From: an uncultured delta proteobacterium
GTDB taxonomy: Bacteria > Myxococcota > Myxococcia > Myxococcales > Anaeromyxobacteraceae
Assembly (NCBI GenBank): GCA_963814585.1
Contig: CAWFDF010000008.1
Coordinates: forward strand, 384,001 to 448,000
Direction of reading: 5' to 3'
DNA length: 64,000 nucleotides
Shown here: positions 48,037 to 56,029 of the stretch, piece after piece
How the letters are laid out: each line of letters opens with the position of its first letter
Position numbering within the stretch: the stretch's first letter is position 1
Translations under genes and position numbers: made by a program
The notes under the pieces: generated by a model
The model's input: the letters and a program-made list of their open reading frames with translations, nothing else
Told to the model about the DNA's origin: nothing
Database searches by the model: none

Positions 48037-49668
48037 TCAGTACATGGAGTAGATCGACACCAGCGCGCTGCCCCCGAACGGGAGCGAGCTGCTCTCCTCG
48101 GCCAGGTCGACGGCGGCGCGGGCCAGCACCGAGAGACGGAGCCCGATGTGGCGGGTCAGCTCGGTGGACGCGGAGAGGTAGAGCCCGTACTCGTCCTGGT
48201 CGAGCCCGAGGCTGGCCGTGTAGGCCCAGCTCAGCCGGGCGATGAGCCGCAGGGAGTCCGTCGGCTGGGCCACGGCCTGCAGCCAGGCGCTGCGACCGTC
48301 GAGCCAGCCCGTGTCCTCCTGGTACCCGGCCGACAGCGACACGCGCCGCGAGATGAACCGCGGCACCACCACCTCCGGTCCCACCCAAGACCGCTCCAGC
48401 CCGGACTCCAGGTCGCGGGCGGTCCCGCCCGCCAGCCCCAGCCGCAGCGGGCCGAAGTCCCAGGAGACCTGGGCATCGCCATGGCGGGAGCGGCCCGCCC
48501 AGGCCATGGGCGTGAAGGTCTGCGGCATGAGCAGCTCGCTGTAGTCGTAGGCCCCGGAGAGCGTCAGCCGCGGGACCGGACGCACCGCGGCCTCGACGCG
48601 GGCACCGTCGAGACCCGCCGGCGAGTTGACCAGGCCGCCAAACCCGAAGCGGGCGTCGGCGAAGACGTCGAGCCAGCCGCCGGCGTGGGCCGAGCCGCCC
48701 AGCTCCAGCTCCAGGCGATCGCCCAGCTCCGGCGAGCGCACCCCGGCCAGGCGCCCCTCCTGCCGGATCACGAGGTCCTTGCCCAGCTTCCCGTCCCAGC
48801 TCCAGAAGCCGCCGGCGGTGGCGCGGGTGGTGGTGAACCCGGTGGTGTCGGGCTGCGGGACCAGGCCACCGAGCAGGCCGGCGGTGAGGCTCCCCCGGCG
48901 CCAGCTCACCACGGCGCCGTCCATCGAGGTCGCGCCAGGGACGTTCCGGGCCAGCACCCGCCCCGCCGAGACCGAGAACGGCCGGGCCTCGGGCGCCCAG
49001 TTGAGCTGGGCCTGCCAGACGAACAGCCGGGCCTTGTCGGCGGGGAGGAAGACCGCCCCGGCCGGCTGGGCCGACCAGTACTCGGCGCGCAGGTCGACGT
49101 CGGCGGTGAAGGGACCGACCGGGGCGCCGTGCAGGGCGGCGTCGGCGCGATCGGCGTGGTAGGTGCCGAGGTCGACGCTCCACCAGCTGACGTCGGAGAA
49201 GGTGAACTCGCCGACGACGTCCCGGGGGGCGTCGAGGGAACGGGTGGTGGCCGGCCTGGCCTTGGCCTCCACCAGCGCCACCGGCGTCGCCGACGCCAGC
49301 TCGGCCCGGCGAGCCAGCTCGGCCTCGCTCGGCAGCGGCGGGAGCCTGACCGCCTTCACCTCGGCGGAGGTGCGCCCAGGAAGGCGGGCGAGGTCACCGG
49401 GCCGCGCCCCTGCGACGGAGCAGGTGGCGTGGTTCGGCGCGACCAGCTCGACGGCGCAGCGGCCGACCTCGGCCAGGCCCCGGCGAAGCACCAGCGCCTG
49501 CCCCACCTCCAGCCCGTCGTCGGAGCCGGCGTCGAGGTAGGCCCGCGCGCCGGTGACCTGCACCACCCGGGCGAAACCCGGGAGCTGGTGGCGCGGCGGC
49601 GGCGACGTCTCGAGCGGACTGGCCGGGGGGGTGGCGGCGAGCGCCAGGGCGAGGATGGAGGCGAGCAC
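48037..49668 (-). CDS. Putative outer-membrane beta-barrel (porin of a porin-cytochrome complex)
   Basis: Signal peptide, ~380 aa of alternating aromatic-rich strands, C-terminal ...VSIYSMY; follows the multiheme genes directly. Confidence 0.7.
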   Translation of the reverse strand: MLASILALALAATPPASPLETSPPPRHQLPGFARVVQVTGARAYLDAGSDDGLEVGQALVLRRGLAEVGRCAVELVAPNHATCSVAGARPGDLARLPGRTSAEVKAVRLPPLPSEAELARRAELASATPVALVEAKARPATTRSLDAPRDVVGEFTFSDVSWWSVDLGTYHADRADAALHGAPVGPFTADVDLRAEYWSAQPAGAVFLPADKARLFVWQAQLNWAPEARPFSVSAGRVLARNVPGATSMDGAVVSWRRGSLTAGLLGGLVPQPDTTGFTTTRATAGGFWSWDGKLGKDLVIRQEGRLAGVRSPELGDRLELELGGSAHAGGWLDVFADARFGFGGLVNSPAGLDGARVEAAVRPVPRLTLSGAYDYSELLMPQTFTPMAWAGRSRHGDAQVSWDFGPLRLGLAGGTARDLESGLERSWVGPEVVVPRFISRRVSLSAGYQEDTGWLDGRSAWLQAVAQPTDSLRLIARLSWAYTASLGLDQDEYGLYLSASTELTRHIGLRLSVLARAAVDLAEESSSLPFGGSALVSIYSMY

Positions 49669-49671
49669 GTC

Positions 49672-53822: not shown

Positions 53823-56029
53823 TTCAGCCCGTACCCGAGGTAGAGGGCGACGCCGATATGGGCGGTGAGGGCCAGCACCAGGAAGACCGCCAGGGTGGCG
53901 TGGAAGAGCCGCCAGTAGCGCAGCAGGTTCTTGAGCGAGCCGTAGAAGCGGAGCTGCCAGCGCAGCCGCGCCAGCTTGATGAGGGCGGCGCGCAGGTCCG
54001 GGTAGTGCTCGGGCTGCTCCAGCCGCAGCCGCAGCGCCACCAGCCGCACCCGCAGCACCAGGGCCTCGAACGGGAAGCGCAGGAGGAGGCCGGGCAGCGA
54101 GCCGGCCCGAACCGGCGCGGTGGCCCGGTCGAGGAGGGCGGCGCCGCCGCTGGCGCGGGTCAGCTCGGGCGCGGCGAAGGCCCGCAGCCGCTCGAAGTTG
54201 GCCGCCAGGTCCTCGAGCTCCTCGGTCGGCTCGCCGTGGACCGGGACCAGGCCGTAGATGTAGCGCCCGACGATGCCGGTGCTGACCACCACCCCCAGCG
54301 CCAGGTAGGTCCCGCTGGCCAGCTGGTTGTTCATCTGGAAGGCGGCGTGGAAGGCGATCACCAGGGGGCTCATGAAGCCGACGAAGACGTGGAAGTCGAG
54401 CCAGCCCTTGATGGCGCCGAGCCCGGTGAGGAGGCGCGTTCGCTTGCGCACCGCGTAGAAGAAGTTGGAGAGCATGAAGGCGGTGGCCACGATGCCGACG
54501 CCATGGCCCCATGCCCCCGCCGAACGGAGCTCCTTGTGCAGCGGCGAGAGCTTCCGCCCCAGCCGGTCCAGGGGATAATACTCCCAACCCTTCCACGCCA
54601 GGAAGACCAGCACCGCCACGCCGGCCCCGGCGTAGAAGGCCCGGAGCATGTGCAGGCGCCGGCGCTCCTTCTGCTCGTGGGCGGCCAGCGGCCGCCGCCT
54701 GGACTTGCCCGCCCCGGCGGTGCCGGTGGTGCCCGGCGCCTCGCCGTGGAAGCGGCGCATGGTGATCCCGACCTTGGAGAGGAACTCCGCCGGAAGCTCG
54801 CCGCCGATGTTGACGATGACGAAGTCGTTGGGGATCGTGACCGGGGTCCCCTTGGCGTCGAGGGTGACCGTGCCCTTCTCGACCGCCTTGACCTGCGACG
54901 GCAGCAGCGCCTTGAGCTTTCCGGCGGCGATGAGCGAGCCGATGCGGGTGCGGTTGGCCTCGCGGCAGCTGGCGAACTCGGCACTCCGGTAGGAGATGGT
55001 CACCTGGGCGCTCGACTCGGTGGCCAGCTGCATGGCCGCCTCGACCGCCGAGTCGCCGCCGCCGACCACCAGCACCCGCTTCCCCTGGTACTGCTCGGGA
55101 TCGGTGAGGCTGTAGACCACCTTCTCCTGGTCCTCGCCCGGCACGCCCATCTTGCGGGGCGTCCCACGCCGTCCGATGGCCAGCACCACCTTGGCGGCGC
55201 TGATGGGGCCCTGGCTGGTGAGGACCTTGAAGTTCCCGTCGGCCCCTTCGAGGCCGGTCATCTTCACGCCCTGCTCCAGCGTCAGCCCGGCCTTGGCGAC
55301 GATCCGCTCCCACCCGGCCAGCAGCTCCTCCTTGCTGATGAGCGACTTGCCGAACTTGCCGACCAGCGGCAGCTCCACCGGCTCGGTCATGGTCACCTTG
55401 CCGCGCGGGTAGTGGAAGACCGTGCCGCCCATCGAGCCCTGCTCCAGCAGCCGGTGCGCCACGCCGTGGGCCTTGAGCGAGAGCGCGGTGGCCAGCCCGG
55501 CGGGGCCGGCGCCGACCACCACCACCGTGCCGCCCTGGGGGGTGGTCTCGGCCAGGCGGTCGGCCGCCTCCATCCCCTGCCGCAGGGCGTTCTTGATGAG
55601 CCCCATGCCGCCCAGCTCGCCGACCACGTGGACGCCGGGGCGGGACGATTCGAAGAACCCGTCGACCTCCGGGAGATCGATGCCGCGCTCGGCCGAGCCG
55701 AAGACCAGCCGGATGGCGTTGACCGGGCACTCCGCGGCGCAGCGGCCGTGGCCGATGCAGTGGTCGGCGTGGATCAGGCGCGCCATGCCGTTGACGATGC
55801 CGAGGATGTCGCCCTCCGGGCACGCCTTCAGGCAGGAGAGGCTGCCGATGCAGATGTCGGGATCGATGACGGGATGGAGCGAGCGGGCCAGGTGCTGCTT
55901 CTTGGCCACCTTCTCGCTCAGGACTGCGGCGTCGCGCTGCTGCCGCAGGCCCTTGCGGAGGTAGCTCACGGCGCCGCCCATCACGGCCAAGGCCAGCGAG
56001 GCCACGACGATCAGCAATCCCTGGTCCAT
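53819..56029 (-). CDS. Ferredoxin-type Fe-S + FAD/NAD(P)H oxidoreductase (TrxB/YpdA-like) fused to a His-rich membrane domain
   Basis: N-terminal TM, CIGSLSCLKACP / CIGHGRCAAECP, GAGPAG, GGGDSA, and C-terminal TMs with 5 His. Confidence 0.85.
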   Translation of the reverse strand: MDQGLLIVVASLALAVMGGAVSYLRKGLRQQRDAAVLSEKVAKKQHLARSLHPVIDPDICIGSLSCLKACPEGDILGIVNGMARLIHADHCIGHGRCAAECPVNAIRLVFGSAERGIDLPEVDGFFESSRPGVHVVGELGGMGLIKNALRQGMEAADRLAETTPQGGTVVVVGAGPAGLATALSLKAHGVAHRLLEQGSMGGTVFHYPRGKVTMTEPVELPLVGKFGKSLISKEELLAGWERIVAKAGLTLEQGVKMTGLEGADGNFKVLTSQGPISAAKVVLAIGRRGTPRKMGVPGEDQEKVVYSLTDPEQYQGKRVLVVGGGDSAVEAAMQLATESSAQVTISYRSAEFASCREANRTRIGSLIAAGKLKALLPSQVKAVEKGTVTLDAKGTPVTIPNDFVIVNIGGELPAEFLSKVGITMRRFHGEAPGTTGTAGAGKSRRRPLAAHEQKERRRLHMLRAFYAGAGVAVLVFLAWKGWEYYPLDRLGRKLSPLHKELRSAGAWGHGVGIVATAFMLSNFFYAVRKRTRLLTGLGAIKGWLDFHVFVGFMSPLVIAFHAAFQMNNQLASGTYLALGVVVSTGIVGRYIYGLVPVHGEPTEELEDLAANFERLRAFAAPELTRASGGAALLDRATAPVRAGSLPGLLLRFPFEALVLRVRLVALRLRLEQPEHYPDLRAALIKLARLRWQLRFYGSLKNLLRYWRLFHATLAVFLVLALTAHIGVALYLGYGLK

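Follow-up and report, generated by a model that had tools for sequence, protein, structure and literature searches.

To our knowledge, every porin-cytochrome conduit characterised to date takes its electrons from quinones, and the question raised by the locus described here is whether a conduit of this general kind might be fed from the cytoplasm by NADPH. The locus is a cluster of five co-oriented genes (g1 to g5), all on the minus strand, which occupies an 8-kb region (positions 48037-56029) of a 64-kb stretch of contig CAWFDF010000008.1, here called the window, from an uncultured delta proteobacterium of the Anaeromyxobacteraceae. The initial annotation had proposed a wire that runs from the cytoplasm to the surface and is supplied directly by NAD(P)H, and this proposal has gained support from two sides, in that the flavoenzyme is fused to a putative two-haem domain in Myxococcota and is co-inherited with it in Gallionellaceae. 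Judged from its sequence, the cluster is a variant of PCC3, a putative porin-cytochrome cluster described from Alpha-, Beta- and Gammaproteobacteria (He et al. 2017, PMC5566968), having the same inner protein and periplasmic cytochrome, a different barrel and a fused NAD(P)H input. With some reservation, we favour the view that the products of the five genes make up a single wire, along which electrons from NADPH in the cytoplasm would leave for acceptors outside the cell.

Organisation of the cluster

The genes follow one another closely, with GTGA overlaps at the g1/g2 and g2/g3 junctions, an ATGA overlap between g3 and g4, and a 3-bp gap (TAG-gac-GTG) between g4 and g5, and re-reading of the junctions bore out the arrangement that had been annotated. 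The estimate of about 44 haems was also borne out, with CxxCH counts of 20 in g2, 10 in g3 and 14 in g4. All 44 motifs of the 8-kb region lie on the minus strand, as against a mean of 0.23 and a maximum of 3 in 300 base shuffles, and a motif count over window bases 1-48036 gave zero. The list of parts, comprising an Fe-S (iron-sulphur)/FAD/NAD(P)H membrane enzyme, cytochromes and a barrel, is supported by domain matches, motif counts and a 22-strand model. No sigma-70-like promoter site was found upstream of the cluster, and the region upstream of g1 is poorly conserved among five relatives, with the exception of a short motif present in three of them.

The flavo-iron-sulphur membrane enzyme

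The product of g1 (53819-56029, minus strand) is a protein of 736 amino acids, with an ATG start that is kept in relatives, made up of an N-terminal membrane anchor, two atypical Fe-S sites, a flavoenzyme resembling YpdA and ferredoxin-NADP+ reductases (FNRs), and a five-helix putative dihaem-b domain. Pfam matches are to Pyr_redox_3 (E 1.5e-38) and Fer4_10 (E 1.4e-11). The ferredoxin domain (about residues 52-107; 55709-55876, minus strand) has the motifs C-x2-S-x2-C-x3-CP and C-x2-H-x2-C-x3-CP, so that both sites are without the second cysteine, one having serine and the other histidine; His94 is present in 47 of 47 aligned sequences, and position 63 is serine in 43 and cysteine in four.

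The best solved relatives of the flavoenzyme domain (about residues 122-430; 54740-55666, minus strand) are YpdA (7a76/7a7b) and TrxR-type FNRs, and a fold search with segment 164-436 aligned residues about 164-434 to 7a76 (Z 21.0, root-mean-square deviation (rmsd) 3.4, 267 aligned, 28% identity). Against the YpdA family model TIGR04018, g1 scores 155 bits, below the cut-off of 340. The motifs GGGDxA and S-Y-R-x7-R, which we take to be indicators of NADPH, are kept in 43-47 of 47 sequences, and this suggests that NADPH is the preferred substrate. An FAD-type GEL motif stands upstream of GxGPxG in 45 of the 47 sequences and is C-terminal in the usual enzymes, and the segment ahead of GxGxxG matches the C-terminal FAD motif of TrxR/GR-family proteins, every match being weak. 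It is likely from these motifs that the domain is circularly permuted.

In the membrane domain (about residues 450-730; 53840-54682, minus strand) there are five helices, which are also present at the C-terminus of the AlphaFold2 (AF2) model (predicted local distance difference test (pLDDT) 81.3), and two W-x3-H-x13-H motifs, starting at residues 543 and 706, with His547/His561 and His710/His724 as the candidate ligands. The TGxxG motif on helix 4 reads TGIVG at 584, with threonine where the PCC3 signature has serine. Helix parity and positive-inside counts place the flavoenzyme together with His547 and His710 at the cytoplasmic face, and His561 and His724 at the periplasmic face, and we infer that the two pairs would bind two b haems. 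Full-length orthologues named by NCBI occur in cultured Anaeromyxobacter (A. dehalogenans, sp. K and A. oryzae), and ABC82437.1 is an orthologue of g1.

The cytochromes g2 and g3

The second gene (g2; 52026-53822, minus strand) encodes a 20-haem c cytochrome of 598 amino acids with a signal peptide, a relative of the PCC3 periplasmic cytochrome, and the third (g3; 51121-52029, minus strand) a 10-haem c cytochrome of 302 amino acids, also with a signal peptide. There are 44 histidines for the 20 haems of g2, at 29.9 amino acids per haem, and exactly 20 for the 10 haems of g3, so that every haem in both proteins can be bis-histidine, as in wires. A profile of the g2 N-terminus scored 55-67 bits on 13 of 14 PCC3-type periplasmic cytochromes, a reference set picked by architecture rather than from the table of He et al., and at most 19 bits on the other cytochromes of the window's genome. 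Neither protein belongs with MtrA, the scores against TIGR03508 (MtrA/DmsE) being 21 bits for g3 and 35 bits for g2 at a cut-off of 192, while the first repeats of g3 resemble the starts of PCC3 extracellular cytochromes (35-50 bits). The two cytochromes share one frame in five of 23 loci picked by g1, and seven of 13 loci picked by the barrel have a single frame of 29-30 haems. It is likely that g3 is the piece that would enter the g5 barrel.

Relationship to PCC3 and the Gallionellaceae test

He et al. describe for PCC3 an inner-membrane protein with five helices, W-x3-H-x13-H on helices 3 and 5 and SGxxG on helix 4, which they modelled as quinone-active, and a periplasmic cytochrome of about 21 haems with a low ratio of amino acids to haems (PMC5566968). 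The membrane domain of g1 has the same five-helix, double W-x3-H-x13-H and helix-4 GxxG signature, g2 is a periplasmic cytochrome of about 20 haems from the same family with about 30 amino acids per haem, and the cluster contains in addition a further variable cytochrome and an outer-membrane barrel. In contrast to PCC3, the membrane protein here is a domain of a 736-residue flavo-Fe-S fusion rather than a free protein of 300 residues, there are three cytochromes (20 haems, 10 haems and the lipoprotein), and g5 (543 amino acids, 22 strands) is without homology to the PCC3-type porins against which it was tested. The possibility that the cluster matches an already characterised system had been raised with the initial annotation; what it matches is a described type, but PCC3 is itself uncharacterised. 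A Gallionellaceae survey (PMC10734462), PMC13386937 and 10.1101/2024.09.20.614158 likewise treat PCC3 as described and functionally untested, and PMC2330069, PMC13013709 and PMC3222651 provide context. No mention of a flavoenzyme partner or of a Myxococcota form of PCC3 was found in the literature, though the figures and Table S4 of He et al., the bioRxiv supplements and subscription papers could hold one.

The link between the enzyme and membrane halves extends beyond the fusion. In all seven distant proteobacterial loci matched by g1 (L007-L013) the enzyme half has a gene to itself, close to giant cytochromes, and in six of the seven a membrane protein with the double W-x3-H-x13-H motif is encoded as well. 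The membrane half of g1 shares 22-29% identity with five proteobacterial PCC3-type membrane proteins, among which the four histidines and both glycines are invariant. Among 101 Gallionellaceae genomes the membrane protein was found in 49 and the separate enzyme half in 51, with an overlap of 49 out of 49 (Fisher test, p 7e-27, a value that is overstated as the genomes are kin). The genes are also neighbours, 49 of 53 enzyme genes having a membrane-protein gene no more than 10 kb away, in 48 cases head-to-head, and 49 of 61 membrane-protein genes having an enzyme nearby. The fetched Gallionellaceae loci around the membrane-protein gene were complete PCC3-type clusters in 8/8 cases, and those around a lone enzyme were without a cytochrome in 2/2.

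Several other features of these and other fetched loci may be recorded. A secreted protein of 490-680 amino acids is encoded right after the flavoenzyme gene in six of the seven proteobacterial loci (L008 11165-13030, L011 8054-9961, L009 11157-13199, L010 9483-10949, L012 11208-12701 and L013 787-2694), with repeats that by eye look like Sel1 or ankyrin repeats in L008, and it is possibly an assembly factor. Genes that by eye resemble components of cytochrome c maturation (CcmF or CcmH) flank several of the proteobacterial clusters (L008 8052-9053, L010 3879-8184, L011 5003-6019, L012 13342-17229). Very large cytochromes stand beside barrels, all on the minus strand, at L010 13450-18465 (67 haem motifs), L041 6874-10668 (51) and L049 12178-16446 (51).

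Conservation in Myxococcota

Matches to g1 were found in 125 of 301 Myxococcia genomes at E ≤ 1e-10 and in 104 at E ≤ 1e-60, the stricter threshold dropping 21 weak or partial rows and the tally including one unpublished genome (G082). The surroundings were examined in 24 loci with sufficient room, 20 of them picked for long contigs and family spread together with L003-L006 (L001 and L002 end too soon to be counted), and the whole module of g1, 20 haems, 10 haems and barrel was present in 23. In the remaining locus (L020) the g1 gene is a full-length paralogue with 69% identity, at 14725-16962 on the minus strand. A search for the barrel found it in 42 of 201 Myxococcota genomes, and when loci were picked by the barrel instead, g1 was found within 20 kb in 11 of 13, often in a different order; in other classes of Myxococcota the module is rearranged, for example as cytochrome-barrel-g1-30-haem. 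It is therefore the module that is conserved and not the gene order, and the earlier suggestion that the order of the genes mirrors a path from cytoplasm to surface cannot serve as evidence.

The barrel and the variable lipoprotein

The last gene (g5; 48037-49668, minus strand) encodes 543 amino acids, with a signal peptide, a small N-terminal beta domain bearing two invariant cysteines and a 22-strand barrel of an unnamed family. Its AF2 model (pLDDT 79.6) consists of the small beta domain and the barrel, and searches with Foldseek, VIA-align and Atlas returned generic outer-membrane barrels or unnamed clusters only, so that the earlier identification of a beta-barrel holds and g5 is predicted to be an outer-membrane barrel. 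The absence of MtrB-like features was also confirmed, there being no Pfam or NCBIfam family at E ≤ 0.01, and MtrB appearing as one of many fold matches (rank 26, Z 14.2, rmsd 8.0, 333 aligned); both databases presumably contain an MtrB model. The lack of a specific match does not show a new fold, and g5 has 1612 representatives at E ≤ 0.001. A profile-profile comparison with PCC3-type porins gave a probability of 0.25% and E 0.24, the porin profile being built from four sequences only; the g5 profile had no match in 10 Gallionellaceae loci, and the PCC3-type porin profile had none in the window's genome. Four long or odd barrel proteins were inspected as possible natural cytochrome-barrel fusions, but none was clean and two look like frameshift products, and the read-through of g4 into g5 in L003 was rejected as a fusion because it looks like a shifted stop.

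Between g3 and g5 lies g4 (49672-51124, minus strand), the variable member of the cluster, which encodes a 14-haem lipoprotein of about 482 amino acids with the lipobox LATG-C. The annotation of this gene stands as regards the 14 motifs and the lipobox, but g4 is not a single open frame in the assembly, the motifs being spread over three frame segments (8+3+3) with the stop in yet another frame. Extra single bases are present at 50266, 50229, 49899 and 49676, each of them missing from a near-identical short-read contig (each case rests on one contig of depth 3-5); these contigs, from freshwater-sediment runs, show one other mismatch in 151-339 bases. A second study provides a contig that is more distant, and this too lacks the extra bases at 50229 and 50266. 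With all four removed the span is 483 codons, as compared with 472-503 amino acids for intact relatives in L004-L006. The frameshifts are thus likely to be assembly errors, and the same contigs led to rejection of g4 as a pseudogene. Relatives of g4 carry 7-26 haems and are absent from eight of 23 loci, six of which have a frame of 22-57 haems nearby. A surface location for g4 is conceivable within the mechanism considered below.

Proposed mechanism and alternative explanations

In the mechanism that we favour, NADPH would reduce FAD in the cytoplasmic domain of g1, the fold being assigned by homology and the nucleotide from the motifs, and electrons would pass through the two atypical Fe-S clusters to a putative haem b on the cytoplasmic side (His547/His710) and on to another on the periplasmic side (His561/His724). 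From there they would enter the 30 presumed bis-histidine haems of g2 and g3 and, if the contacts and locations are as supposed, cross the outer membrane through the g5 barrel, reaching either the variable g4 or, directly, Fe(III), Mn(IV), humics or another surface. The inner part would resemble an NADPH oxidase or ferric reductase with a different flavin domain. Electron flow outward to Fe(III) or humics is downhill, and flow inward from Fe(II) is uphill both in redox terms and against the membrane potential. With no coupling module present, these considerations together favour export. Outward flow is driven by the membrane potential and spends it, and for that reason the wire may well serve as a valve for reductant, or to mobilise metals by reducing them, and not as the main energy-conserving respiratory chain. 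The window's genome has 46 frames with at least four haem motifs (up to 58) and a single copy each of the g1 membrane domain and of the barrel, so that other conduits may carry the main respiration. Other giant multihaem frames in this genome include C14:179407 (58 motifs), C1:4058 (42), C6:6336 (42), C16:17105 (30), C14:235658 (29) and C8:540253 (28). There is precedent for such coupling in FRD-family domains, which connect an NAD(P)H reductase in the cytosol with an acceptor on the outer side (PMC12525009).

A number of observations weigh against NADPH export. No enzyme gene lies close to twelve of the 61 membrane-protein genes in Gallionellaceae, L020 has g1 without a multihaem cytochrome or barrel in 20 kb, and two of the 13 barrel-picked loci are without g1 in the stretch read. 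The g1 membrane domain falls below the Ferric_reduct cut-off (E 0.012, 16 bits against 28), with two of seven aligned members matching, and it had no solved relative among PDB sequences, a comparison of sequence only in which the fold was not searched alone. In the relatives of g4 the sorting positions +2 and +7 show no conserved myxobacterial residue, and g4 itself has at +2 a lysine, which in M. xanthus is associated with lipoproteins of the inner membrane. One PCC3 membrane gene was up during iron oxidation in Sideroxydans CL21 (10.1101/2025.02.27.639646). MsrQ, an FRD protein, binds ubiquinone (PMC12525009), and a quinone site in g1 is therefore possible.

The last of these points, together with the enzyme-free Gallionellaceae copies, the published PCC3 model (PMC5566968) and the quinone activity often seen in dihaem-b proteins, argues for a quinone-linked conduit, in which the membrane domain would exchange with menaquinone, the flavoenzyme would be a side input as an NADPH:quinone reductase, and the wire would mainly drain or fill the quinol pool. 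Measured potentials of MsrQ argue against ubiquinol as its donor (PMC12525009). A quinol-fed wire needs no flavo-Fe-S domain, yet this domain is fused or adjacent almost everywhere, and the enzyme is present in every Gallionellaceae genome that has the membrane protein; the quinone-linked conduit is accordingly regarded as unlikely, though it is the strongest competitor to NADPH export. FNR-type enzymes often run towards NADPH, and the wire might run inward, with reduced humics, Fe(0), a cathode or a syntrophic partner as the outside donor and NADP+ or ferredoxin reduced for biosynthesis. With ligands changed at both Fe-S sites of g1, potentials suited to such a direction are conceivable, and PCC3 is common in iron oxidisers (PMC5566968). 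Set against this are the redox gap between Fe(II) and NADP+, the membrane potential, and the apparent absence from the cluster, as judged by the domain scan and the AF2 model, of a second flavin or other coupling module. In S. lithotrophicus ES-1, furthermore, both PCC3 clusters were expressed less on Fe(II) than on thiosulfate (PMC8788666), which is in line with export and a poor fit with Fe(II) uptake, and we regard inward flow as improbable. No more probable, in our estimation, is a role not directed at minerals, whether as a YpdA-like disulfide reductase, as a source of NOX-like surface superoxide or as a periplasmic haem capacitor. The closest solved relative of the enzyme is indeed the bacillithiol disulfide reductase YpdA, and the cluster occurs also in Myxococcia genomes of 9-11 Mb outside the window's family, but the YpdA family score is less than half the cut-off, and a stress or thiol function would require neither a conserved barrel nor an outer cytochrome that varies. 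Export of NADPH electrons thus remains the explanation that we prefer, with its direction, its independence of quinones and the localisation of its parts argued from sequence.

Implications

If NADPH does feed such a conduit directly, reductant of the anabolic pool would be connected straight to minerals or electrodes, and the cytoplasm, not the quinones, would supply the known PCC3 wires. PCC3 is counted as a candidate iron oxidase in metagenomes, and that reading would change, as a direct link to NADPH thermodynamically favours export. As a tentative proposal, to which we give slightly less than even chances, PCC3-type clusters across bacteria may constitute a third class of extracellular electron transfer, in which a module of the NADPH oxidase kind works without quinones, passes through two membranes and exports electrons from NADPH instead of importing them from Fe(II). 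The Myxococcota form would then be a self-contained five-gene version, with a fused enzyme and haem-b domain and a different barrel family, and could give a heterologous host a direct connection from NADPH to an electrode. As the two halves are fused in g1, a single purified protein would suffice to test the key step.

Neighbouring genes

Downstream, at 46151-48015 (minus strand), a gene of the Exo_endo_phos nuclease family begins 21 bp after the barrel and is followed by a gene with an OmpA-like C-terminus (by eye, with no Pfam match), and both are probably co-transcribed passengers. The nuclease was considered as a core part and rejected, being beside the barrel in eight of 23 loci, all from the window's family or Anaeromyxobacter-like. 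Upstream of g1 and divergent from it are two tRNA genes (56318-56474, plus strand). The second is tRNA-Glu(TTC); the anticodon of the first was not callable by ARAGORN, but that gene is nearly identical in five of five aligned sequences and is therefore likely to be real, with an unusual loop. A small tetrahaem cytochrome resembling c554 lies about 3.5 kb upstream of g1 (59189-59662, minus strand), and a 4-haem frame is found 3.4-5 kb upstream of g1 in L001, L003, L005 and L006 also. Further away, the stretch at about 14000-19500 is ordinary, its low GC content and its tRNA-Ile and tRNA-Ala being what an rRNA operon would show.

Comparison with other known systems

A parallel lies in the FRD superfamily (NOX, ferric reductases, STEAP and MsrQ with Fre; PMC12525009), the members of which combine a cytosolic NAD(P)H flavoenzyme with a transmembrane bis-histidine haem domain and an acceptor at the outer face, as g1 is proposed to do. 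In g1, which has the four histidines and a Ferric_reduct score below cut-off, the flavin domain is of the TrxR/YpdA type, is accompanied by a ferredoxin and is N-terminal to the membrane domain; there are five helices rather than six, and the likely acceptor is a 20-haem cytochrome leading across a second membrane. YpdA/Bdr and the TrxR-type FNRs share the fold of g1 residues about 164-434, but g1 is below the YpdA cut-off, has the second FAD motif moved to the front and is fused to ferredoxin and membrane domains. With MtrCAB and MtoAB the cluster has in common a decahaem cytochrome beside a barrel and an optional lipoprotein cytochrome, and is distinguished by the distance of g3 from the MtrA/DmsE family and by the feeding of Mtr by CymA from quinol. 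The barrels differ as well, with 22 strands in g5 as against 28 in MtrB (PMC5566968). The Geobacter-type Pcc systems (OmbB-OmaB-OmcB) resemble it in having a porin with periplasmic and outer cytochromes in related bacteria, but differ in gene content (PMC4245776), and the published Anaeromyxobacter pcc (with Adeh_3392), described in the same paper, consists of two genes, with a 12-14-haem cytochrome of 338-344 amino acids and no membrane enzyme.

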